The notes under the pieces are model-generated. The model was not told the DNA's origin and did not search any database. It was given only the letters and a program-made list of their open reading frames with translations. Below are positions 3,321-25,595 of a stretch of 32,000 nt of DNA, piece after piece (within the stretch, counting starts at the first letter, position 1; the number at the start of each line of letters is the position of its first letter). The DNA comes from Microcystis aeruginosa NIES-2549 (GTDB taxonomy: Bacteria; Cyanobacteriota; Cyanobacteriia; Cyanobacteriales; Microcystaceae). Where the stretch lies: NCBI RefSeq assembly GCF_000981785.2, contig NZ_CP011304.1:3840001-3872000 (forward strand), read 5' to 3'. The position numbers and the translations under genes are program-made.

Positions 3321-3530
3321 ATGACAATTACCCTAAAAGTGCCTAGTATTGCCTGTGAAGGTTGCGCTAATACCATTACTAAAGCGATTAATAATCAGCA
3401 ACCGGCAGCCCAAATATCGGTGGATGTAGCCAATAAAATCGTCACGGTAGAAACCACCGCATCCCGCGCAGAAATTGCCCAATGGATCAGCGAAGTCGGT
3501 CATACTGTTGAGTCTGGGAGTGAGAGTTGA
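3321..3530 (+). CDS. Heavy-metal-associated (HMA) domain protein, CopZ-like metallochaperone
   Basis: MTITLKVPSIACEGCANTITKAI carries the CxxC metal-binding loop of the HMA ferredoxin-like fold. About 69 aa from the ATG at 3321 (the ORF track begins at 3282). Confidence 0.8.
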   Translation: MTITLKVPSIACEGCANTITKAINNQQPAAQISVDVANKIVTVETTASRAEIAQWISEVGHTVESGSES

Positions 3531-4321
3531 CATCCTCCCCCTTTAAAAATAGACCTCAATTGGGTGCTTATTGTTTAGAGATTGTCTATGAACAACCATC
3601 CTTATCAAGTCAAGAGGGAGAAAGATATGCTTTTATCGATTTAGGCTTAAATAACCTAGCTGCTGTTACCTCTAATATTCCCGAATTTCAGCCAACTTTA
3701 GTATGTGGAAAAGCCTTAAAATCCTGCCATCAAAAGTACAACAAGACACTAGCTAAACTCAAATCGGAATTACCCAGTCTCCAGAAGACCAGTAAAAGAA
3801 TACAAGGTTTAACTTTAAAGCGTAATTGCCAGGTGGATTATTACCTCCACACCGCTAGTAAATATATTATTGATAAATTACTAGCTCATCAACTTAACCT
3901 TTTAGTTATTGGTCATAATCAAGGCTGGAAACAAAACATTAATATTGGAGATAGAAATAACCAGTCATTCGTAAATATTCCTCATTCAAGGTTTATCGAA
4001 CAACTTATCTATAAAGCAAATTTAGTAGGAATAGAGGTCAAAACAACTAATGAAAGCTATACCTCTAAATGTAGTTTCTTGGACTTAGAGTCTATTCAAA
4101 AGCAAAAAAGCTATTTAGGCAAGAGAATTAAAAGAGGACTATTCAGAAGCTCGTCGGGTTATTTCTATGGAGCAGATATTAATGGTTCCTTAAATATTGG
4201 AAGAAAGGTAGTCGGAGAGGCCGCCTTTAGCGGGAATCCGATAGAGAGGTTCGTAGTTAACCCAGTACGGGTCAAAGCGTACAAAGCTAATTCTAGATGC
4301 AATATTTGCGTACAGAATTAG
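3527..4321 (+). pseudogene. tnpB: IS200/IS605-family TnpB (OrfB) RNA-guided nuclease, N-terminally truncated remnant
   Basis: RuvC-like residues are retained (FIDLGLNNLA, TNESYTSKCS, GADINGSLNIGRK), but about 130-150 N-terminal residues expected of TnpB are missing. The frame opens on a TTG that overlaps the TGA of the HMA gene. No tnpA is adjacent. Confidence 0.8.
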
Positions 4322-6863: not shown

Positions 6864-7424
6864 ATGAAACTTTTGAGATTATCCTATCAAGATTTATCCT
6901 CTGGATTAAGTATAGATTCTTGCGATTTTTTTCCAGATTTTAATTTATTAGTTGGTATCTCAGGTGCAGGAAAAACATCGATTTTAAAGTCCATTAGTAA
7001 TTTAAAAAGAATCGCTAATGGTGCATCTATAAATGGAGTAAAATGGGATGTAGAATTTTTAACAACCGAGCATATTCGTTATCGTTGGTTGGGTGAATTT
7101 ACTTCTGATAAAACCATAGTTAGTGAATATATTTATAGAGAGGATAGGGAAATAATTAAAATAGAAAACGATCAAACTTGGTTTAATGCTCAAAAAATCC
7201 CTAAATTATTACCTCGTTATAGTGTTGCACAACTATTAATTCCTGACCCTGATATTTATCCCGTTCGAGCAGAATTTAATCAAATTGACACATATTTTGA
7301 TGAATATATTGTACAATTTTATCACAAGTATAATGGTAACTCCAGAAAAACAATCCTAAAAGTGCCGTCAGTCTCTTCAGTTAGCAGTTACCAGATAGAA
7401 GTTAAAAATTGGCAATTTACTTGA
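6864..7424 (+). CDS. P-loop ATPase N-terminal fragment (SMC/RecF/OLD/AAA_15-21-like head), probably truncated
   Basis: A Walker A motif (LLVGISGAGKTSILKSI) lies about 30 aa from the N-terminus. No Walker B or signature motif follows. The ORF ends after 186 aa in a repeat-like tract (cagtctcttcagttagcagttaccag), 4 nt before the next gene. Confidence 0.5.
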   Translation: MKLLRLSYQDLSSGLSIDSCDFFPDFNLLVGISGAGKTSILKSISNLKRIANGASINGVKWDVEFLTTEHIRYRWLGEFTSDKTIVSEYIYREDREIIKIENDQTWFNAQKIPKLLPRYSVAQLLIPDPDIYPVRAEFNQIDTYFDEYIVQFYHKYNGNSRKTILKVPSVSSVSSYQIEVKNWQFT

Positions 7425-9285: not shown

Positions 9286-9654
9286 ATGGGAGTTGATACT
9301 ATGTCTAACGAAACCGTTACCTATTCCCTAGAAGCTGTTTTGACTAGGATTGAGGGGAAAATTGACAATCTCCAAAAAGATGTTGACCAAAAATTTGAAA
9401 CTCTCCAAAAGGATTTTAACCAAAAATTTGACAGTTTCCAAAAAGATGTTGACCAAAAATTTGACAAAATCGACGAACGGTTAAATAAACTAGAGGTAGG
9501 ACAGGCAAAGTTAACCGAAAAGGTTGAGGGCATCGATAATCGCCTAAAATCAGTGGAAGGAACCCAAAAAAATCAGGTTTGGACATTGATTATTCTTTTG
9601 GCAAGTGCGATCGCTACTGCCGGTTGGAAAGTATTTTTTTCAGGTAATCCCTAG
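9286..9654 (+). CDS. Tail-anchored coiled-coil protein, paralog 1 (three 11-residue repeats). The likely true start is the ATG at 9301.
   Basis: LQKDVDQKFET / LQKDFNQKFDS / FQKDVDQKFDK hendecad repeats, then IDERLNKLE...VEGIDNRLKSVEG, then a C-terminal TM segment VWTLIILLASAIATAGWKVFF. GGAG lies 9 nt upstream of the ATG at 9301. Confidence 0.65.
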   Translation: MGVDTMSNETVTYSLEAVLTRIEGKIDNLQKDVDQKFETLQKDFNQKFDSFQKDVDQKFDKIDERLNKLEVGQAKLTEKVEGIDNRLKSVEGTQKNQVWTLIILLASAIATAGWKVFFSGNP

Positions 9655-9780: not shown

Positions 9781-10083
9781 ATGGGAGTTGATACTATGTC
9801 TAACGAAACCGTTACCTATTCCCTAGAAGCTGTTTTGACGAGGATTGAGGGGAAAATTGACAGTCTCCAAAAAGATGTTAACCAAAAATTTGACAAAATC
9901 GACGAACGGTTAAATAAGCTAGAGGTAGGACAGGCAAAGTTAACCGAAAAGGTTGAGGGCATCGATAATCGCCTAAAATCAGTGGAAGGAACCCAAAAAA
10001 ATCAGGTTTGGACATTGATTATTCTTTTGGCAAGTGCGATCGCTACTGCCGGTTGGAAAGTATTTTTTTCAGGTAATCCCTAG
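9781..10083 (+). CDS. Tail-anchored coiled-coil protein, paralog 2 (one 11-residue repeat). The likely true start is the ATG at 9796.
   Basis: Nearly identical to paralog 1 except for a 66-nt (22-codon) deletion of two repeat units. Confidence 0.65.
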   Translation: MGVDTMSNETVTYSLEAVLTRIEGKIDSLQKDVNQKFDKIDERLNKLEVGQAKLTEKVEGIDNRLKSVEGTQKNQVWTLIILLASAIATAGWKVFFSGNP

Positions 10084-10224
10084 AATTAACCCGTGGCTAC
10101 CATTAGGTTAACTACTCTCCCACAAGCCTACTTTTTTCTTAGTACAAGTATTCTATATTTTGCGATCTCTGTTTTGGGTATCGTACCTATACCCTACTGA
10201 ATTCTACCCATCAATCTACTTTTC

Positions 10225-10267
10225 GACTGCAAAAACAAAAATCAGTCCATATCTTGACTGCAAAAAC
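10225..10267 (+). promoter_or_regulatory. Two perfect 12-nt direct repeats gactgcaaaaac (10225-10236 and 10256-10267), a candidate operator or activator site
   Basis: Read directly. The 31-bp centre-to-centre spacing places the repeats just upstream of the candidate -35 of the dndB-like gene. Confidence 0.3.
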
Positions 10268-10291: not shown

Positions 10292-10320
10292 TTGACAAGC
10301 CTAAAAGCTTTCTTTAAACT
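10292..10320 (+). promoter_or_regulatory. Candidate sigma70-type promoter for the dndB-like gene
   Basis: TTGACA (10292-10297), a 17-nt spacer, then TAAACT (10315-10320), about 100 nt upstream of the ATG at 10426. Confidence 0.4.
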
Positions 10321-10425
10321 AGATTCAGTGCATAAACAAAAATTCCGATAAGTACCTATTGCAGTAGGACTTCTCGGACGTTTGTATGTACTTAATTGTT
10401 TTTGGACATTTTTTCAAGGTTAATT

Positions 10426-11661
10426 ATGACTCAGATCACATCGGCTGTCAATGACGACGGCTACCGTTCCAGTGCTGACCTCGTACACTGTCAAAGACAA
10501 GATGAAGCGCAGACTTTAGCTTTCGCTGATTCGGCCACATCAGGAGCGAGAGTTTTTATTTGTCATGTTTACGAACAGGGGGGAAGAACTCATCTAGTTT
10601 TTTCTCTACCTTGTAGTCTGCTGATTGAATTGGCAAAATTACAGAGTGCTGAAGCTAAAAAGAATAAGTCTAATGCGGATGAAGTCATGAACAGACCACT
10701 TATTCTCCAGCACGTTAACGAGATTGCAAAGTATTTGCAAGATACGGATCAGTATATTTTGCCCCCATTCATCTTTAACTCGAATACACCGATCAAAGTT
10801 TTTACCTATGGTGCAGGTCCAGTCAAATTCGGTTATGCTGTTATGCCAATAGATGTAGAACTTTATGTTACTGACGGTCAACATCGGTTAAAAGCGATCG
10901 AAAAAGTTTTACCTGAAAAACCTGACTTGCGTAACGACAGCGTAACTGTGCTGGTAGTTCAAGAAGCAGATATGGATCAAATTCATCAAGATTTTGCCGA
11001 TTGTGCCAAAAATAAACCCATCCCTCCTGCTTTATTGGCTGCTTTCGACGTTACTGATCCTCTTGCTAAGTTGACTCGGACAATTACTAAAGATTTAGTC
11101 ATTTTCAATGGACGGATTGATAAAATCTCTCGTACTATCGGAAAAGACGCCAAATATATGTTTACTATGAGTCAGTTAAGAATCGGTGTCGCTGAATTTC
11201 TTTTTGGTTCATCTCGAAAACCAGTTATAGAATCTCATTCTCGTCAAAGTAAGAGTGAATTTTTGCTGATGTTAGAGAGATTAAAGATTTTTTACACAGA
11301 ATTCGCCAAAAACAATGATACTTGGCGACTTTTGCTACAACCCGCATCTCAAACGGTCAATCTCAACTTATACGATCTCAGACAACAGCGTGTGGATTTT
11401 AATACCGTTGGGTTTCAGGTACTTAGTCGAATTGGACATTTCATCTTTTTTGGACAAGAATTCACTGATTTACAGCGAGAAGCTCTAATTAAAGCACTTG
11501 CGGGTTTGGATTATACCCGTGACTCAGCTTTATGGCTAAATAGTATCGTGATTGATGATGCTGGTGCTAAAAAGATAGTTACACAGACAACAGCAGTCGA
11601 TAAAGCGTTTAAAATCGCCAGAGATGCTGTACAAGAGAAAACTGGGATAGTTTTAATCTAG
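10426..11661 (+). CDS. dndB: DGQHR-domain protein, DndB-like (ParB/sulfiredoxin-fold family)
   Basis: A VTDGQHRLKAIEKV motif plus the downstream IHQDFADCAKNKP motif typical of DndB-like proteins. The ATG at 10426 is preceded by aagg (the ORF track starts at a TTG at 10396). Confidence 0.8.
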   Translation: MTQITSAVNDDGYRSSADLVHCQRQDEAQTLAFADSATSGARVFICHVYEQGGRTHLVFSLPCSLLIELAKLQSAEAKKNKSNADEVMNRPLILQHVNEIAKYLQDTDQYILPPFIFNSNTPIKVFTYGAGPVKFGYAVMPIDVELYVTDGQHRLKAIEKVLPEKPDLRNDSVTVLVVQEADMDQIHQDFADCAKNKPIPPALLAAFDVTDPLAKLTRTITKDLVIFNGRIDKISRTIGKDAKYMFTMSQLRIGVAEFLFGSSRKPVIESHSRQSKSEFLLMLERLKIFYTEFAKNNDTWRLLLQPASQTVNLNLYDLRQQRVDFNTVGFQVLSRIGHFIFFGQEFTDLQREALIKALAGLDYTRDSALWLNSIVIDDAGAKKIVTQTTAVDKAFKIARDAVQEKTGIVLI

Positions 11662-11819
11662 TTTCGAGTAGATTTAGAGCAATTCAGTCTTATATACCTT
11701 CTGAAATCACAAGCAGAGATCGAGCAGTTTTGCTTTATCTCTCTTTTCCTGTGACTATTGATAGGTTTTACTAATTAGACATACAGTATAGAGAGGAGAA
11801 CTTTAAAAGCATATATGTA

Positions 11820-13421
11820 ATGACCGCAATCCAAACCTCTCTACTACCGAATCGTACTATTGATGAGTTCGTAGAAGATATTAAACTACTGACTCAAGAA
11901 GTACAAAAGCTCTACTGTTTAGATGAGATTCCTTGGATTATTGGTGTTTCTTGGGGAAAAGATAGTTCAGCAGTTTTACAGTTAATCTGGAATGCGATCG
12001 CTGCTTTACCATTAGAGAAGCGACAAAAAACTATTCATGTGATCACCACCGACACAATGGTTGAAAATCCCATTGTCTCCGCATGGGTTAGAAAGTCGAT
12101 GGAAAAGCTGGAAAAAGCTTCAGAAGCTCATAGAATGCCATTTAAATCACATTTACTCTATCCTGCTGTAGAAGATCGCTTTTGGAGTGGATTAATAGGT
12201 AAGGGTTATCCTGCTCCCCGTTTGAAATTTCGTTGGTGTACTGGAAGACTGAAAATTAACGCTTCTAATAACTTTATTCGTGAAGTCATCAGAAATTGTG
12301 GGGAAACAATATTAGTTTTGGGAATCCGCAAAACAGAAAGCTCTCGTCGTGCTAAGGTGATGGAAAAATTAGAAGCTAAAAGACTTCGTGAGCGTTTGAG
12401 TCCTAATGCAAATATGCCCAATTCTCTCGTTTATAGTCCGATCGAAGATTGGCGTACTGATGAAGTATGGATGTACTTAATGCAGTGGGAAAATCCCTGG
12501 GGAGGAGACAACAAAGAATTATTAGCAATGTATCGAGGAGCGACTGCGGATAATGAATGTCCCCTGGTGGTAGATACCTCCAGTCCTAGCTGTGGAAGTT
12601 CCCGTTTTGGTTGTTGGGTTTGTACTTTGGTAGATAAAGATACATCTCTGAGTATGATGGTTCAGAATGACCAAGAAAAGGAATGGTTACAACCACTCGT
12701 AGAACTTAGAAATGAATTAGACCTTTTGGATGATAGAGAGAGACGTGATTTCCGTCGTCTTGTTGGGAAAGTACAATTATTTGAAAGAAACTTAAATGGA
12801 GAAATATCGATCGAACCCATACCGGGACCCTATACTAAAAAATGGCGGGAATATTGGCTGAGAAGGGTATTAGAGGCCCAGGAGAGCGTGCGTACTAATG
12901 CCCCAGAGGATATGAAAGATATTACCCTAATTACCACGGAGGAACTCAGCGAAATTCGCCGGATTTGGAGGGAAGAAAAGCACGAATTTGATGACCAATT
13001 ACCGAAGATTTATAAACAAGTGACTGGAGAAACTTTTCAAGACCCGCGACCTGGAGCGGATAATAATCTTTTGGGGAGTGAAGAATGGGATATCCTCGCG
13101 GATATCTGTGCCGAGGATTCCATGCACCTAGAATTATTGGCTAAACTTATCGATACGGAACGTCAATATTTTCTCAAAATCTCTCGCAAGGGTATTTACA
13201 AAGACCTAGAAAAATGCTTTGAGTCTAGTTCTCGTAGTAAAGAGGAAGCGATCGAAAATGCTCGTTATGTCTATGATCTAAAGAATGCCGCTCAAAGTGG
13301 CAATATTGCTCAGGTGAAAGAACAACTCAAGGAGAGTTTTAGTGAACCGGAAAAAGACCCGCAAAAACAGTTAACTTGGGCCAGTATGAAATTCCCTACA
13401 ACCGATGAGGAGGAGGAATAA
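11820..13421 (+). CDS. dndC: DndC-like PAPS-reductase-fold PP-loop ATP pyrophosphatase with Fe-S cysteine cluster
   Basis: 533 aa. It has PP-loop VSWGKDSSAVLQLIW, GKGYPAPRLKFRWCTGRLKI and ECPLVVDTSSPSCGSSRFGCWVCT, the motif set I associate with DndC of DNA phosphorothioation systems. Confidence 0.88.
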   Translation: MTAIQTSLLPNRTIDEFVEDIKLLTQEVQKLYCLDEIPWIIGVSWGKDSSAVLQLIWNAIAALPLEKRQKTIHVITTDTMVENPIVSAWVRKSMEKLEKASEAHRMPFKSHLLYPAVEDRFWSGLIGKGYPAPRLKFRWCTGRLKINASNNFIREVIRNCGETILVLGIRKTESSRRAKVMEKLEAKRLRERLSPNANMPNSLVYSPIEDWRTDEVWMYLMQWENPWGGDNKELLAMYRGATADNECPLVVDTSSPSCGSSRFGCWVCTLVDKDTSLSMMVQNDQEKEWLQPLVELRNELDLLDDRERRDFRRLVGKVQLFERNLNGEISIEPIPGPYTKKWREYWLRRVLEAQESVRTNAPEDMKDITLITTEELSEIRRIWREEKHEFDDQLPKIYKQVTGETFQDPRPGADNNLLGSEEWDILADICAEDSMHLELLAKLIDTERQYFLKISRKGIYKDLEKCFESSSRSKEEAIENARYVYDLKNAAQSGNIAQVKEQLKESFSEPEKDPQKQLTWASMKFPTTDEEEE

Positions 13422-13484
13422 CGGGTTTATGTAAACTGGCGATCGAGTGGACTACCAATAAAATTACCATTTCCCGATGACGAG

Positions 13485-14177
13485 ATGAAACCCTACCAAA
13501 AAATTCCTATTCGTGAATGTGGGGAACCCCTAGTACCTATACCCGCAGATAAGTTTGTTATTCCTTCTCCCCATGCTTACGAGAAATTAGGGGCTAATTA
13601 TCGGGGTAAATCTCCCTATTTTTTGCGACAAGGGGTGTTAAATGCCCTGATTGAGGCTCAAAACCGTCTGCAAGTCTATCAACCCGGTTGGCAAATTTTG
13701 ATTTTTGATGCCTATCGACCGGTGGAAGTGCAACAATTTATGGTCGATTATACTTTTCAGACTCTCCTAGACACAAGAGGATTAGCCAAAGAGAAACTAT
13801 CGGAGGCAGAAAGTCAAGCGATTTTAACAGAAGTTTACACTATTTGGGCAATTCCCAGCGATAATGCCGCCACCCCGCCTCCCCATAGTACCGGAGCGGC
13901 GATCGATATTACCCTAGTGGACGAGAAGGGACAAACCATCGACATGGGGGGAGAAATCGATGAGATCGGAGAGCGATCGCATCCCGATTATTATATCGCC
14001 GCAAAAAGCCCGCAAGAACAGAGTTATCATCAAAAACGAGTTTTATTGGCTAAAGTGATGGAGGAGGCGGGATTTAGCCGACATAAGGGGGAATGGTGGC
14101 ATTTTTCCCTAGGGGATCAGATGTGGGCCTGGTCGCTCGATCGAGCCTACGCCATCTATGGCAGAGTGGAGGATTAA
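13485..14177 (+). CDS. D-alanyl-D-alanine dipeptidase, VanX/DdpX-like (peptidase M15D)
   Basis: PPHSTGAAIDITLVD and GEWWHFSLGD zinc-ligand motifs. 230 aa. Confidence 0.85.
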   Translation: MKPYQKIPIRECGEPLVPIPADKFVIPSPHAYEKLGANYRGKSPYFLRQGVLNALIEAQNRLQVYQPGWQILIFDAYRPVEVQQFMVDYTFQTLLDTRGLAKEKLSEAESQAILTEVYTIWAIPSDNAATPPPHSTGAAIDITLVDEKGQTIDMGGEIDEIGERSHPDYYIAAKSPQEQSYHQKRVLLAKVMEEAGFSRHKGEWWHFSLGDQMWAWSLDRAYAIYGRVED

Positions 14178-14970: not shown

Positions 14971-17628
14971 ATGGCCAAACAACTGGATTTCTTAGCTAGT
15001 GGTCAAATTATACCCACGGCTTTACACCAAGAGATGGAACGCTCCTATCTAGAATATGCCATGAGTGTGATCGTGGGGCGAGCCTTGCCGGATGTACGCG
15101 ATGGCTTAAAACCAGTACATCGTCGCATATTATACGCTATGCACGAACTGGGTTTAACTCCCGATCGCCCTTTTCGCAAATGCGCGCGGGTGGTGGGGGA
15201 TGTGTTGGGTAAATATCATCCCCACGGCGATCAGTCAGTGTACGAGGCACTGGTTCGTATGGTACAGGATTTTTCCAGTCGTTACCCACTTTTATCGGGC
15301 CATGGTAACTTTGGTTCGATCGATAACGACCCCCCGGCGGCCATGCGTTACACAGAAACCCGTTTGGCCGGCATCGGCGATCAGGCGGTTTTAGGGGGAA
15401 TTAGCGAAGCTATCGTTAATTTCAACAGTAATTTTGATAATTCTCAACAGGAACCCGTTGTTTTACCCGCTCAGTTACCGATACTCATTCTTAATGGTTG
15501 TTCTGGTATTGCGGTGGGGATGGCGACTAATATTCCTCCCCATAATTTAGGGGAAGTGGTGGAAGGTTTAATCGCTTTGATTGATAATCCCGATTTAAGC
15601 GAGGAAAAGTTAGTAGAAATTATCCCCGGGCCCGATTTTCCCACGGGAGGCGAGATACTAGATGATACCGGTATTCGCGAGGCTTATCGCACTGGTAGGG
15701 GGATTATTCCCGTGCGCGGAGTGGCGAAAACTGAAACAATTATCATTGAGGGCAAGCGCCGAAGGGAAAGGACGGCAATTGTGGTTACTGAGTTGCCTTT
15801 TCAGGTGAATAAGGCGGCATGGATTGAAAAAATCGCCGAATTAGTCAATTTAGGGAAATTGGAGGGAATTGCCGATATCCGCGATGAAAGCAATCGCGAA
15901 GGCATTCGGGTGGTGATTGAATTAAAGCGGGAAAGTCAACCGCAGCAGGTTTTGGCGGCTTTATACCAACAAACGGCCCTACAGACTAATTTCGGGGCAA
16001 TTATCCTCGCTTTGGTCGATAATCAACCCCGGCAGTTATCGTTAAAACAAGTTTTACAGGAATTCTTGCGCTTTCGAGAAACGACTCTCACCCGTCAGTA
16101 TGGCGATGAGTTGCAACAGGCCAGCGATCGCTTACACCTAGTGGAGGGTTTATTATTAGCTTTGCAGAATATCGATCGAGTGGTGGATATTCTCAAAAAT
16201 GCTCCCGATGGGACGACGGCTAAGTATCGTTTTCAGGCAGAATTAGGCATTAGTGACCCTCAAGCTGATTCTATCTTGGCTATGCCCCTACGTCGTTTAA
16301 CCGGTTTGGAAAGACAAAAGTTAGAGACGGAAGCGACGGAATTACAAACAAAAATTCAACAGTTAGAAACCCTCCTCCATAACCGTCAGGAGTTTCTCAA
16401 GTCTCTGAAAAAAGAATTGCGCTCTTTAAAGAAAAAATTCGCCGATAGCAGACGGACAAAAATTCGCACAGGGAAGTCGGGGGACAGGAGACAGGAGACA
16501 GGAGACGGGAAGCAGCAGGCAGCAGGGAAGAAACAGGAGACAGTCCCGATGAAAAAATTTTCACCCCCACAGATGAAAGAGGTTTCTTTCCCCACACCCC
16601 ACACCCCACACCCCACACCCTCTTTGAAGGCAGAAGTTAAAAAACAGGAGAATAAAGTTAAGAAAAAGCCTGAGAGTGAGAATGCACCGAGTTTAAGCCT
16701 ATTTACGCCCCAAGAACCCCCAGAAAATGCAATTTTATTGCTTGATGCCGAAGATAAAATTAGTTGGACGACACCAGAAGAGCGAGCGCCGGACCAGGGT
16801 TTAATTATCTATCAACAGGCGATCGAAAAACGGGAAAATTTCCTAGTTATCCTCGATAATGCTAAAGCTTACCCGATTGCTACCCGGGAAGTCCCCCCGC
16901 AAGCGAATCAACCAGTGTTAATCTCCAGTCTGCTGACCAAAACCGCCCAAAAAGAGTCAGAAGCCGTGTTAAATCAATTTTTCTTGACGGAACCTCAAAA
17001 AACTCAAGAATTGCTTTTACTGAGTCAACAAGGGCGAATAAAGCGGCTTCCCATCGATGAATTAGAGGGGGTTGGTAGTCGGGGTTTGTCCCTGATGAAA
17101 TTGAAAGAAGACGATCGCCTATATGGTGCTATTTTTACTCACGAGGGCCTGGACTTAGCGATCGCCACCAGTAGCGGTCGAGTGTTACGTTATCCCGTGC
17201 GCGAGGAATTATTGCCAATGATGAGTAAATCCGCTCAGGGTTTGGCAATTTTGCGATTGCGCTACGGGGAACATCTAGCCGGCTGTGTTTCTCTCCCCCA
17301 TCGGGAAAATCTGCTCCTGATTTCGGGATTGGGTTACGCGAAAAGACTGGCGATCGAGAATTTACGTTTATCACAATTAGGCGATCTTGGTTCACCCGCT
17401 TTACAATTCGTCAACAAACAGGATAGTTTAGCGGCTATGGTAGCGGCGCGGCCGGGGAGTATAGTGTTATTAAGTACCAATCAGAATCGAAAACTACCCT
17501 TAGAGGTAGAAACTGTGACGGTTACGGGTAAAGACGGGACAGGTTCACAATTAGTGAAACTCAACCCCACAGAAAAAATTATCAAAGCACAATTGTTACA
17601 GGACACCTCGAATAGGGGATTTTGTTAA
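14971..17628 (+). CDS. Type IIA topoisomerase subunit A, GyrA/ParC family paralog with a low-complexity insertion
   Basis: It has [34 protein letters not shown], and the active-site Tyr context [11 protein letters not shown]. The C-terminal blades are degenerate. I found no GyrA-box (QRRGGKG-like) in the translation. Confidence 0.9.
16541..16625 (+). repeat. Copy A of a ~90-nt dispersed element ending in (CCCCACA)4, located in frame inside the topoisomerase CDS
   Basis: cagtcccgatgaaaaaattttcacccccacagatgaaagaggtttctttcccc(acacccc)n is almost identical to 26056-26146, with one substitution and one extra heptamer in copy B. Confidence 0.9.
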
Positions 17629-20299: not shown

Positions 20300-21523
20300 T
20301 TATAACCACTTACTTAGCTGTAGTTGTCGATAGGTTATCTTGTTTCCCTTTTTCAATTCATAGTTAAGAATACATTGGCCCACATATCTAGCCAAATTAA
20401 CAGGGACAGCATTGCCAATCATTTGTTCTAGATTAGATTTTGTTCCTGTAAAAATAAAGTCTTTAGGAAAAGTTTGAATATAGCTTCGCTCCCTCGTTGT
20501 TAGCGGTCTTAATTTTTCCTTGAGATGACAAGCATCACCGGGATGTTGTCGATAGGTTTTGGGAACTGGTCGATTTACTCCTCGAATAGTAGGGCTAGGT
20601 TCATAAATACTGAATATCGCCCTTCTTTGATAGCTTCTAGGATGTCTATAATAGTATTCTATATCTAATTCTTTGCCCATATAGTCAAATACAGTCAGAG
20701 GTTGACTTGATAAATTGTTATTGATTTCATCGATTAAAAAATCATCTTCTTCGTTCATTTTACCGATCAAAAAATATCTTTTTCTAGTTTGAGTAACTCC
20801 GCAGTAACAAGAATTAATAACTTTTCCAGTTAAACCATAACCATGTCTTTTAAAAACTTGTTTTGCCTGAGTGAGTATTTTACTTTTCTCAATTCTGTCC
20901 ACATTTTCCATAACAAACCATTGGGGACTTACTCCAGTTACAATTTCAGCGAATGTGAGCGTTAGATTCGCTCGTCCTAAACCCTCGTCTCTCTTACCCG
21001 CACTGGAAAAGTCTTGACAAGGAGGGCTGCCGACAATAATCTCAGGATTATATTGAGCCAATATTTCTTGATTAGATTCTCTAGATAAATCGACATTAAA
21101 TATCGGATGACTAAAGTTATTTCTATAGACATCTATAGCAGGTATCCAATTATCAAATGCGGCCACAATAGTAAACCCTGCTTTCTGAAAACCTAAAGAT
21201 AAACCACCACAACCAGCGAATAAATCGATTGTGATCATTTTGCTCCCTCCCCTAAATTGACTCTCGAAAGCATAAAATAAATTATCGGAATTGGGAGCTA
21301 GACCGTATAACTCTTTTGTACTTAACTCAGCAGGTTGAACTTTTAAATTTTCATCGAGTTTCAGATATATATTTTTCATTCCTTTCCCATCCAAGTAAGC
21401 GCACAAAGAAGCTGGAAATGAGGAGTTAAATTGATTTTTAACCCATGTTTCTTTTTGGGTAAAATCCCGATTCGAGTGCTTCAATCCGAATAAACTAGGC
21501 TTAAATATTGCCGATTTTCCCAT
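20300..21523 (-). CDS. DNA (cytosine-5) methyltransferase with a ~95-aa non-MTase N-terminal extension
   Basis: Motif I is IDLFAGCGGLSLGF, motif IV GSPPCQDFS, motif VI MENV, motif VIII QTRKRYFLIG, motif IX RPLTTRERSYIQTFPKDF and motif X GNAVPVNLARYVG. An alternative start is the ATG at 21238, preceded by GGAGGGAG. Confidence 0.92.
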   Translation of the reverse strand: MGKSAIFKPSLFGLKHSNRDFTQKETWVKNQFNSSFPASLCAYLDGKGMKNIYLKLDENLKVQPAELSTKELYGLAPNSDNLFYAFESQFRGGSKMITIDLFAGCGGLSLGFQKAGFTIVAAFDNWIPAIDVYRNNFSHPIFNVDLSRESNQEILAQYNPEIIVGSPPCQDFSSAGKRDEGLGRANLTLTFAEIVTGVSPQWFVMENVDRIEKSKILTQAKQVFKRHGYGLTGKVINSCYCGVTQTRKRYFLIGKMNEEDDFLIDEINNNLSSQPLTVFDYMGKELDIEYYYRHPRSYQRRAIFSIYEPSPTIRGVNRPVPKTYRQHPGDACHLKEKLRPLTTRERSYIQTFPKDFIFTGTKSNLEQMIGNAVPVNLARYVGQCILNYELKKGNKITYRQLQLSKWL

Positions 21524-23682
21524 TACCTCAACCCGATCGCTGAAATTATCTCATCAATAATCTTAATAGCAATAAACGGCGCAATCATGCCTCCCACGCC
21601 GTAGATGAGGATATTGCGCCGCAATAGTTGGTCAGCAGTGAGCGGGCGAAATTGAACGCCTTTAAGTGCTAGGGGAATCAAAACGGGGATAATCAGGGCA
21701 TTGTAGATCAGGGCCGAGACGATCGCCGATTGAGCGCTTTTCAAACCCATGATATTTAAAGCACCGATCCCGGCAGCGGCGAAAATCGTCGGGATAATGG
21801 CGAAATACTTAGCGATATCGTTAGCTACCGAAAACGTGGTCAGGGCGCCGCGGGTAATTAATAACTGTTTGCCGATGGTCACTAAATCGATCAGCTTGGT
21901 CGGGTCGGAATCGAGGTCCACCATATTGGCAGCCTCCTTCGCCGCTTGGGTTCCGGAGTTCATTGCCACACCGACATTAGCCTGGGCCAGTGCCGGTGCG
22001 TCGTTGGTTCCGTCTCCCGTCATGGCAACTAACTTGCCCTTGGCTTGCTCGCGACGGATCACCTCGATCTTATCTTCCGGGGTGGCCTCGGCGATAAAAT
22101 CATCCACCCCCGCCTCCGCCGCGATCACCGCCGCCGTGATCTGGTTGTCGCCAGTGAGCATGATCGTTCTCACACCCATGCGCCGTAATTGGTCAAAACG
22201 CTCTTTTAATCCAGGTTTCACGATGTCTTTGAGATAAATAACCCCGTAGATATCGTTACCCCGACAGACGGCCAGGGGAGTCCCCCCCAAACGGGAAACC
22301 CTTTCCTGTGCCTGATCGAGGCTGGCGGGAACGGAACCCCCCCTAGAACGGACGAAACCTTTAATCGCTTCTACGGCCCCCTTGCGGTATTCCTCACCGT
22401 CCCTATCGGTGCCGCTCATGCGGGTACGAGCCGAGAATGGGACTCCCTCGCCGGGTTGACCATCGATATCGAGGTTTGCGCCCAAATTCCGGGCTAAGGC
22501 AACGATCGAGCGTCCTTCCGGGGTTTCGTCGAAAAGGCTGGCCGCTAGACAGACGCGGGCTAATTCCTCGAGGTTATGACCGTTGGCCGGGATAAATTCA
22601 TCAGCCAGCCGGTTGCCGAGGGTGATTGTTCCCGTTTTGTCGAGAAGGAGGGTATTTACGTCACCGCAGGCTTCCACCGCACGCCCAGAGGTGGCGATGA
22701 CGTTAAACTGAGCCACGCGATCCATGCCGGCGATACCGATCGCGCTCAATAAACCGCCGATCGTCGTGGGAATGAGGGCCACGAGAAGCGAGATCAAGAT
22801 GGCGATACTGGAACCGGCCCGAAAAGTATCCGCGACCGCCGGACCGAGGCTCGTTTCCAGGAAACCGGCGATATAGTTCCCGATCGAGGGAATCGTGGCC
22901 ACGACAATTAAAAAGACTTGGGTTAACACGGCCAGAAGTACCGTCAGCGCGATCTCGTTGGGGGTTTTCCTGCGCTCGGCCCCTTCCACAAGGGAGATCA
23001 TGCGATCGATAAAACCCCGGCCGGGATCTTGAGTGATCCGCACTGTCAACTCGTCCGAGAGAAGCCGCGTACCACCGGTGACGGAACTGGCGATGTCAGT
23101 GCCGGGTTGTTTGAGGACGGAGGCCGATTCTCCAGTGATCGCCGATTCATCCACCGAACCGATTCCCTCGATCACTTCCCCGTCGGCGGGAATCACGTCC
23201 CCGGCCACCAGTTTCACCCGATCGCCCCGATGCAAGGCCGTGGAACTGACCGACTCGATCGATCCGTCGGCCAGGATTTTTCTGGCGATCGTGTCGCTGC
23301 GGGTCGATCGCAGGGCATCGGCCTGGGCTTTTCCCCGTCCCTCGGCGATCGCCTCGGCGAAGTTGGCGAACAGCACCGTGAAGAAGAGTATGAGGGTGAT
23401 GATGCCGTTAAGTAGCCGTTGTTGTCCCCTATCACCGGCGATCGTGCCGAATAGATGCGGGTCGATCGTCACCAGGGCCGTGACGATTGTTCCCAACCAG
23501 ACCACGAATAGGACCGGGTTACGCACGGCGATGCGCGGGTCGAGTTTGAGGAAGGACTGCCGGATCGCGCTTTGATAGAGACCGGTCCGGTTGACCTTGG
23601 GGGTGTGGTGGCGGTCGTCCCGGCGACCTCTCGGCACTCGCAACGGGCGGGGGGACTTAGAATTTCCTTTGTTCGTTCTCAT
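21523..23682 (-). CDS. kdpB: K+-transporting P-type ATPase subunit B
   Basis: 719 aa. It has the DKTGTIT phosphorylation site, [21 protein letters not shown] and an N-terminal [11 protein letters not shown] motif. Confidence 0.97.
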
Positions 23683-23697
23683 AAATTATCTAAACTC

Positions 23698-25443
23698 CTA
23701 GCCGATCATCCTGGTGATTTGAAAGGCTTCCGCGATCGGCCCGAGGGCTAATATCGGCAAGAAAGTGAGCGCACCGAGAATTAAAATCACCCCCGCCGTT
23801 ACGCCAGTAAAGAGTCCGGTATCGGTGCGGAGGGTTCCGGTGGTGGCGGGAACCGGTTGTTTGCGGGACATCCCATCGGCTAACAAGAGCAGGGCCGCGA
23901 TCGGGATATACCGTCCGGCCAGTAAACTAAAGGAGGCGCTCAGATTCCACCAGAGAGCGGTCATCGTCGGTTTCGCCCCAGATGCGATCGCAAGCGGTGC
24001 GGGTTGGGAGTCCCCCAGTCCCTCGAATCCCGACCCGTTATTGGCGGCGGCGGAAGCGTACTCGTAGATAACTTGAGATAATCCGTGAAAGCCGGGGTTA
24101 CTGATGCCCCGAAAGTCGGGAAAGGCAAGGGCGATCGCTCCGGGGATGAGGATGGCGATCGGGTGAACCAGCAGAATTAAAAAACTCGCTAACACCACTT
24201 CCCGCTTCTCGATTTTGCGCCCGAACAATTCGGGGGTTCTTCCCACCATTAGCCCGGTGACGAATACCGCCAGGATCAGATAGGCGAACAGGTAGGCGGT
24301 GCCGGTTCCCTGGCCGCCGAAGACGATTTGCAGGAACAGATTCGAGAGGGTGGCGAAGCCGCCGTTCGGCATCAAGGAATCGTGCATAGCGATCACCGCA
24401 CCGCACATGGTGGCCGTGGTAGTCACTGCGTACAGGGCTGATTGCGCCCAACCGAAGCGCACTTCTTTCCCCTCGAAGTTAACCGCTCGATCGACCCCTA
24501 GCAGGGAGTTAACCGCCGGGTTGCCGTTATATTCTCCGATCGCTGTGATGATCGTAAAGCCGATGAAGATACCGAGGGGAATTAGATAGATTAATCGAGC
24601 CTGCTTGAGATTATCGGCGAAAACCCCGTAGGTATAGATCAGGGAGGTGGGAATCGAGAGAATAGCAACTAATTGCACCAGATTGACGAATCCGTTCGGG
24701 TTTTCCAAGGGGTGGGCCGAGTTGCTGGCAAAAAAGCCGCCGCCGTTTTCTCCCAATTCCTTAATAATCTCAAAGTGGGCCACTGGACCGCGGGCGATCG
24801 CCTGACTGAGGTTGGGGTTTTCTAGCGTCGGCAAGATCGCCGGGCCCGCGAGGGTTTCCGGGACTCCAGCGATGATCAGGGCAATTGCCCCCACGATCGA
24901 GATCGGTAAGAGGATACGGGTGATCGCTCGGATCAGATCCACATAAAAATTGCCCAACGGTCGCCCCGTCAGTCCCCGAATAAAGGCGATCCCCACCGCT
25001 AGACCGGTTCCGGCCGAGGTGAACATCTGGTAGCCGAGACCCCAGATCTGACTCGCGTAGCTGAGGGTGGTTTCCCCGGAATAATGCTGTTGGTCGCTGT
25101 TGGTGATAAAGGAAATCGTTGTATGTAGCGTGGTGTCCCAAGTGGGGGCGGGGATCCCCGTCGGGTTGAGGGGAAGGACTCCTTGGCCCGCAATCAGGGA
25201 AAAAACCAGAATTGCTATTACCGCGTTACTGTAGAGAACGGCGCGGAGGTACTGCCAGCCAGTCATATTCTCTTTCCCTTTCACCCCGACGAAGCTGTAA
25301 AGAAGACTCTCGGCTCGATCGCACAGTGGGTCGAGCAGGGTTCTCTGTTCCATGAAAACCCTCGCCATATACCGCCCGAAAAAGGGGGTGATTGCCACGA
25401 TTATCAGGATCGTGAGCGCGATTTGAATCCATCCTTGCAACAT
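23698..25443 (-). CDS. kdpA: K+-transporting ATPase subunit A (channel-like subunit)
   Basis: 581 aa, polytopic. The N-terminus [30 protein letters not shown] and the overall pattern match KdpA. Confidence 0.97.
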
Positions 25444-25595
25444 GGTTCGATCAACTCCGAAAAAGACCAGTGGTCATTGAGCTTGTGGAAATGTGGCCGA
25501 TCATGGACGGTGAGCTTGTCGAATCCGTCGATGATCGACCTGAAAAATCACGGGTTCGCTGTCTCGAAACCACTTGAGAAAACCAAGTTTGTCTA

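Follow-up and report, generated by a model that had tools for sequence, protein, structure and literature searches.

The 32,000-nucleotide (nt) stretch of Microcystis aeruginosa NIES-2549 analyzed here (contig NZ_CP011304.1, positions 3,840,001 to 3,872,000 of the forward strand; hereafter the window) carries a gene for a DGQHR-domain protein followed immediately by dndC, a gene of the DNA phosphorothioation (PT) system. We put the probability at about 0.9 that this pair represents one half (dndB-like-dndC) of a split, four-gene, modification-only PT system of M. aeruginosa, with dndD-dndE located elsewhere in the genome. The split dnd layout of Microcystis is already known, having been published in 2008: according to the genome paper on M. 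aeruginosa PCC 7806 (Frangeul et al., PMC2442094, Additional file 9), a DGQHR-motif DndB and DndC lie on contig323, DndD and a DndA-like desulfurase on contig288, and DndE on contig304. In toxic Microcoleus, too, dndBC and dndDE were reported in 2021 to occupy separate contigs "as in toxic M. aeruginosa strains" (PMC8546630). The window holds the same locus as PCC 7806, where a DGQHR-motif DndB lies beside DndC and the other dnd genes are on other contigs, and in UniRef the PCC 7806 sequence of the same 90% cluster is named "contig C323"; the strain and the number of upstream XhlA-like genes differ, and otherwise nothing substantive does. The locus belongs to the ordinary dnd system of cyanobacteria, presumably modification-only and passed on by vertical inheritance, and it matters mainly for correct annotation.

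The dndB-like gene and dndC

A preliminary description of this DNA had reported two intact, adjacent, same-strand open reading frames (ORFs), one with a DGQHR motif and the other with SWGKDSS, FRWCTGRLKI and a cysteine cluster, and all of these motifs were recovered in the translations. The dndB-like gene (10426..11661, + strand) encodes a DGQHR-domain (ParB-fold) protein of 411 amino acids (aa) counted from an ATG, which contains YVTDGQHRLKAIE and is the cyanobacterial DndB paralogue located immediately 5' of dndC; the ORF listing reaches a TTG at 10396, and Microcystis homologues and gene calls give 411 aa. The 533-aa product of dndC (11820..13421, + strand) is predicted to be the PP-loop ATP pyrophosphatase/[4Fe-4S] sulfurtransferase of the PT system, and SWGKDSS, FRWCTGRLKI and CPLVVDTSSPSCGSSRFGCWVCT were all present in its translation. 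Both its PP-loop motif SWGKDSS (the PP-loop motif of DndC is given as SGGKDS in PMC6435447) and its C-terminal cysteine cluster CPLV...SCGSSRFGCWVCT are intact, and the cysteines of the latter can be assigned by homology to an iron-sulfur (Fe-S) cluster.

Against the TIGR03183 dndC equivalog, the product of dndC scored 672.9 bits (cut-off, 290.4) over profile positions 2-446 of 447, and it reached 699 bits against NF005316. Because the TIGR03183 score is more than twice the cut-off, the protein is, by profile comparison, a bona fide DndC; identical DndC sequences are present in many assemblies. The DGQHR protein scored 106.9 bits against TIGR03187 for the DGQHR domain (cut-off, 58.85) and 236.7 bits against the Pfam DndB family PF14072 (cut-off, 29.1; profile positions 1-334 of 338). 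Searches of PDB chain sequences with the DGQHR-family alignment and with DndC returned no matches.

The preliminary description had also raised the possibility of a self-contained module, in which DndC, with its PAPS-reductase fold, would need only the DGQHR/ParB-fold protein as partner and neither DndD nor DndE, perhaps by a nonclassical chemistry, in minimal modification or defense, as suggested by IbrA/IbrB and by BrxP of type 4 BREX. IbrA, BrxP and SspD do share the PAPS-reductase/PP-loop fold with DndC, and IbrA's partner IbrB is likewise a ParB-fold protein. Nevertheless, the equivalog-level match to DndC speaks against this idea, since PADLOC models gave 629 bits for DndC versus only 42.6 for BrxP and 32.8 for SspD. 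The similarity to the latter two is weak and at the domain level, with no BREX or Ssp gene context: neither pglZ/brx nor ssp genes were detected in the window. Pfam assigned to DndC only PAPS_reduct and a subthreshold Sp-DndD match, with no IbrA-type domain.

Two further profile matches of DndC were recorded. The subthreshold match to Sp-DndD (PF20306) is weak and covers residues 424-468, and the PADLOC model PDLC03333 matched DndC over nearly its full length (318 bits); the label of this model, "Type II methyltransferase", appears to misname a family of DndC-like proteins.

As the preliminary description had noted, dndC is followed by an M15 dipeptidase gene rather than by another dnd gene. 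The gap is 63 nt (13422-13484), and the next gene, at 13485-14177, encodes a Peptidase_M15 D-Ala-D-Ala dipeptidase (Pfam, 146 bits). We also considered a dndD remnant behind dndC, and this was ruled out, given that the 63-nt spacer is too short and the next gene is the conserved dipeptidase. Pfam scans of window ORFs of at least 90 aa recognized no dndD, dndE, cysteine desulfurase gene (dndA) or dndFGH, again as described. A 32-kb window cannot prove that pathway partners are absent, and operons are often split in the highly rearranged Microcystis genome.

Distribution of the pair and the separate dndD-dndE locus

We scanned one representative genome per species with the DGQHR-family alignment as query, which returned 49 loci; the ORFs of all 49 were clustered, and conserved neighbors were annotated. 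Four Microcystis loci encode a DGQHR protein 93-99% identical to that of the window, and an orthologue of the window type was present in all 34 cyanobacterial loci (49-99% identity). A dndC orthologue (61-99% identical) lies just 3' of the dndB-like gene in 31 of these 34, and two of the remaining three end at contig ends. Since this census shows such adjacency, the window protein is best described, on gene order, as a cyanobacterial DndB paralogue always beside dndC. DndD (TIGR03185, 646-656 bits) was recognized within 10 kb, 3' of dndC in the gene maps, at 17 of the 31 pair loci, these 17 coming from as many other cyanobacterial species, and DndE (TIGR03184, 126-136 bits) was also recognized at 12 of those 17. 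The preliminary description had treated the pair as stand-alone, and the co-occurrence census shows that it is not typically so; judging from these gene orders, the dndB-like-dndC pair normally belongs to a dndB-C-D-E cluster.

Contiguous clusters, such as those of Aphanothece hegewaldii (L006), Microcoleus (L010, L033) and Nostoc (L012), encode orthologues of the dndB-like (60-72% identity) and dndC (61-73%) products in the same order, and share with the window the same upstream palindrome and TTGACA, described below. They differ in that dndD is found no more than 10 kb further on, usually together with dndE, whereas in the window the cluster is split. NpF4488-4494 of Nostoc punctiforme is a published example of a contiguous cyanobacterial dnd cluster (PMC2442094). 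Many cyanobacterial clusters also encode a canonical DndB, a 530-aa third DGQHR protein and dnd_assoc_4 (TIGR04062), accessories that are often added in the contiguous clusters and that the window lacks.

Up to three DGQHR paralogues thus occur per cluster (L005, L008-L011, L013, L033 and others), namely, the divergent 530-aa protein, canonical DndB and the window type, and in the same clusters dnd_assoc_4 is present and dndD is separated from dndE by an unannotated 217-aa gene. Outside cyanobacteria, homologues of the DGQHR protein from Armatimonadota/Chloroflexi (L035-L045) are 32-38% identical and have no dndC nearby. At six Chloroflexi loci the next conserved gene after the DGQHR homologue encodes an N6/N4 DNA methylase (PF01555), and this adjacency suggests that the DndB-like subfamily also accompanies other DNA-modification enzymes.

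The pair also occurs without dndDE nearby, in Microcystis, in Pannus and at seven loci that belong to Chamaesiphon and to a Chroococcales metagenome-assembled genome (MAG) related to it. That the two genes remain tightly linked there would suit a self-contained module. In the Chamaesiphon-type loci, dndDE was not seen within ~8 kb, no genome-wide search having been made, and the best 120 DndD matches name no Chamaesiphon. For Microcystis and Pannus, in contrast, the missing half could be located.

With Aphanothece DndD as query, we retrieved a Microcystis DndD cluster at 90% identity comprising 461 member sequences; of the 15 members listed, 12 are named, all of them Microcystis, and these include M. 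novacekii Mn_MB_F_20050700_S1, the MAG that contributed pair locus L003. The same query also retrieved the Pannus brasiliensis DndD. Intact, adjacent dndD-dndE genes were found in Microcystis PMC 728.11 (L050) and in M. aeruginosa LEGE 91341 (L055, contig JADEXY010000135), and Microcystis DndE scored 153 bits against Pfam DndE. The LEGE 91341 assembly also contains the dndB-like-dndC pair, on contig JADEXY010000102 (L002). Likewise, a single assembly of Pannus brasiliensis holds dndD-dndE (L054, JBAFSM010000004) and dndB-like-dndC (L004, JBAFSM010000036). Half of a split cluster had been the other option offered in the preliminary description, and it was borne out by these separate loci; at the gene level, dndD and dndE are present elsewhere in LEGE 91341, in Pannus brasiliensis and in PCC 7806 (PMC2442094). 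A TPP-enzyme gene adjoins dndD-dndE in both L050 and L054 (78% identity). Because the same gene flanks dndD-dndE in Microcystis and in Pannus, the comparison places the dnd split before the divergence of these two genera.

These data bear directly on the self-contained module. Orthologues of 60-73% identity sit in the dndB-C-D-E clusters of 17 species, Microcystis and Pannus retain an intact dndD-dndE under selection in the same assemblies, and a split into dndBC and dndDE had already been described for M. aeruginosa and Microcoleus. Given the equivalog-level match of DndC, the contiguous clusters of orthologues and the retention of dndDE, such a stand-alone pair, perhaps with a different chemistry, is very improbable.

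The spacer between dndD and dndE in Microcystis (L050, 11987-12314; L055, 6691-6947) includes a heptanucleotide tandem repeat, (ACTGATC/ACTGATT)n, with apparently more copies in L050 than in L055, as read from the printed sequence. The repeat resembles cyanobacterial STRR repeats, and no such repeats were seen in the dnd loci of other bacteria (PT review, PMC6435447).

A split cluster might also be a decaying one, broken by the frequent rearrangements of Microcystis into halves that no longer form a working system. Microcystis genomes are indeed highly plastic (PMC2442094), an inversion breakpoint falls directly after dndC in M. aeruginosa NIES-4325 (L001), the flanks of dndDE are unlike between strains (L050 versus L055), and the authors of the Microcoleus study speculated that separation of the dnd halves may affect expression (PMC8546630). 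Against this, no truncated copy of any of the four genes occurs at the Microcystis and Pannus loci examined, and the catalytic motifs are intact. The ratio of nonsynonymous to synonymous substitution rates (dN/dS) ranges from 0.05 to 0.25 across dndB-like, dndC, dndD and dndE (0.06-0.25 for dndB-like and 0.05-0.09 for dndC), the Microcystis-Pannus comparison is saturated at synonymous sites, and for each of the four genes Microcystis is nearer to Pannus than to Aphanothece. The four genes are under strong purifying selection and have been kept and have evolved together since the ancient split. As they are intact and their dN/dS is low despite saturated synonymous sites since a split older than both genera, we hold decay to be highly unlikely.

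Upstream region and proposed mechanism

Two operator-like palindromes matching CAGTC-N8-GACTGCAAA lie in tandem upstream of the dndB-like gene, CAATCTACTTTTCGACTGCAAA at 10212..10233 (+ strand; 1 mismatch) and CAGTCCATATCTTGACTGCAAA at 10243..10264 (+ strand; exact match). A scan of the window yielded 6 matches versus 1.7 expected, with 0-1 mismatch only in the tandem pair. The position of the palindrome is identical in 5 of 5 Microcystis loci, and with up to 2 mismatches it occurs within 320 nt 5' of the orthologous dndB-like gene at 17 of 32 cyanobacterial loci, which span several orders. Its density is 2.15 per kb 5' of dndB-like orthologues versus 0.016 per kb in the remainder of these loci, figures that come from a pattern derived post hoc from the very sequences in which it was counted.

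A promoter-like site, TTGACA-17 nt-TAAACT (10292..10320, + strand; 10 of 12 consensus matches), follows the palindromes 5' of the dndB-like gene. Conservation between Microcystis and Pannus covers the -35 TTGACA, the -10 element (which reads TAGACT in the latter) and the AGTGCATAAACAAAAA block behind it, and TTGACA is found 3' of the palindrome at most other cyanobacterial loci. The promoter-like region that the preliminary description ascribed to the two genes therefore holds up for the dndB-like gene, where the site is conserved in Pannus and stands behind a conserved palindrome. It does not for dndC, whose candidate site (11758-11787; 9 of 12 consensus matches) lacks conservation support, and promoter matches in the window were at chance level (12 sites versus 10.8 expected), as was the consensus promoter/terminator scan overall. 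By analogy with Salmonella DndB, and because the conserved tandem palindrome lies just 5' of the -35 element, we regard the palindromes as a candidate operator, the putative binding site of the DndB-like regulator. DndB is known to be a negative regulator that binds the dnd operon promoter (PMC6435447). The CAGTC-N8-GACTGCAAA palindrome is the only new, testable detail to come from this locus and a possible entry point to the regulation of cyanobacterial PT modification.

We infer the PT chemistry in vivo, as well as the sulfur donor, from homology with the systems of Salmonella and Streptomyces. A housekeeping cysteine desulfurase of the NifS/IscS type would provide persulfide sulfur; IscS can stand in for DndA, and DndD is an ATPase (PMC6435447). 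Three proteins would then work jointly: DndC, a PP-loop ATP pyrophosphatase carrying a Cys4 iron-sulfur cluster; the SMC-like ATPase DndD; and DndE, which binds nicked DNA. Together they would put sulfur in place of a nonbridging phosphate oxygen at short chromosomal consensus sites. The DGQHR protein would act as the regulator, probably binding the tandem palindromes 5' of its own promoter and limiting expression of its own gene and of dndC.

Compared with dndBCDE of Salmonella enterica Cerro 87 and dndABCDE of Streptomyces lividans, the Microcystis DndC, DndD and DndE match at the equivalog level, and the DGQHR protein, located 5' of dndC, corresponds to DndB in position. The differences are that the former systems are single operons, whereas the Microcystis genes occupy two loci and have no dndFGH partner, and that the Microcystis DGQHR protein is only ~20% identical to canonical DndB. 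Furthermore, Salmonella and Streptomyces provide studied PT systems, and that of Microcystis is predicted from its genes.

PT-dependent restriction genes (dndFGH or pbeABCD) were detected neither in the window nor within 10 kb of dndD-dndE in L050, L054 and L055. Because none stands beside either half, a modification-only ("solitary") dnd system, typical of cyanobacteria, is the most likely reading. Solitary clusters, i.e., those without dndFGH, make up 45.6% of dndBCDE clusters (PMC6435447), and dnd configurations in Cyanobacteria have been described as varied or incomplete, with vertical inheritance in Cyanobacteriales and dndFGH absent (PMC8569181).

Several points weigh against the assignment of the pair to a split PT system. 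Of the profile comparisons that the preliminary description proposed, TIGR03183 and TIGR03187 were passed, but the DGQHR protein fell below the threshold of the TIGR03233 dndB equivalog (82.9 bits versus a cut-off of 328). The canonical DndB of a Microcoleus-type cluster, which is collinear with and 20% identical to the window protein, scored 400.8 bits on the same profile, and the window-type protein coexists with canonical DndB in some cyanobacterial clusters. Because of this failure and this coexistence, the role of the 411-aa protein may differ from that of Salmonella DndB. In addition, the palindrome (up to 2 mismatches) was not found 5' of dndD in Microcystis and Pannus, so the dndB-like-dndC and dndD-dndE halves may be regulated separately; k-mer comparison of the dndB-like promoter with the dndD upstream region in these genera yielded no shared k-mers of note. 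Finally, the dndD-dndE genes of the window's own genome are deduced from sibling Microcystis assemblies rather than seen directly, and our literature search found no measurement of PT in Microcystis DNA.

The DGQHR protein could be no DndB orthologue but a distinct cyanobacterial paralogue, forming with dndC and the conserved palindromic operator a self-regulated unit that can be uncoupled from dndDE and that might act without DndD and DndE in Chamaesiphon-like lineages or, under some conditions, in Microcystis. We give this a slim chance. The conserved promoter and operator region of the pair, and the absence of the operator from the dndDE locus, would suit the self-contained module discussed above; the split dndB-C-D-E system nevertheless remains our preferred reading.

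Neighboring genes in the window

Other window ORFs of the size scanned were compared with Pfam, and GyrA was named from precomputed Pfam hits. The remaining genes encode PolA, a TnpB fragment, LepA, ABC transporter components, two XhlA-like proteins, a response regulator, GyrA, a DUF218 protein, KdpC/B/A/D, a C5 methylase inside the kdp operon, ArgJ and an ABC1 kinase. Scanning the window for tRNA genes and against Rfam gave no matches.

Directly 5' of the dndB-like gene are two tandem genes for XhlA-like (PF10779) coiled-coil membrane proteins (9286-9654 and 9781-10083), which vary across Microcystis strains in copy number (1-3) and length (95-122 aa). On the other side of the pair, the block of M15 dipeptidase, response regulator and gyrA is inverted relative to the window in M. 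aeruginosa NIES-4325 (L001, 4166-8487). As the breakpoint of this inversion lies immediately 3' of dndC, the 3' end of the dndB-like-dndC pair is a rearrangement hot spot.

The C5 cytosine DNA methylase gene (20300-21523, - strand; PF00145, 216 bits) lies between kdpB and kdpC in a segment of low guanine-plus-cytosine (GC) content (~36%). At its N terminus the product aligns with no more than positions 1-71 of the 332-position HindVP restriction-endonuclease profile, which looks like an orphan methylase joined to what is left of a lost restriction gene. The GC content of kdpA and kdpB (21500-25500) is 54-60%, versus ~40% in neighboring Microcystis DNA, and this excess suggests that the kdp operon was horizontally acquired.

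A truncated TnpB (3527-4321, + strand; 264 aa, with OrfB_IS605 and TNB domains) and a 186-aa ABC ATPase fragment (6864-7424, + strand), the latter directly 5' of a full-length ABC exporter gene, are probably gene remnants. GyrA (14971-17628, + strand; 885 aa) contains a low-complexity insertion rich in Lys, Pro and Glu, and its total length among Microcystis strains ranges from 870 to 914 aa.

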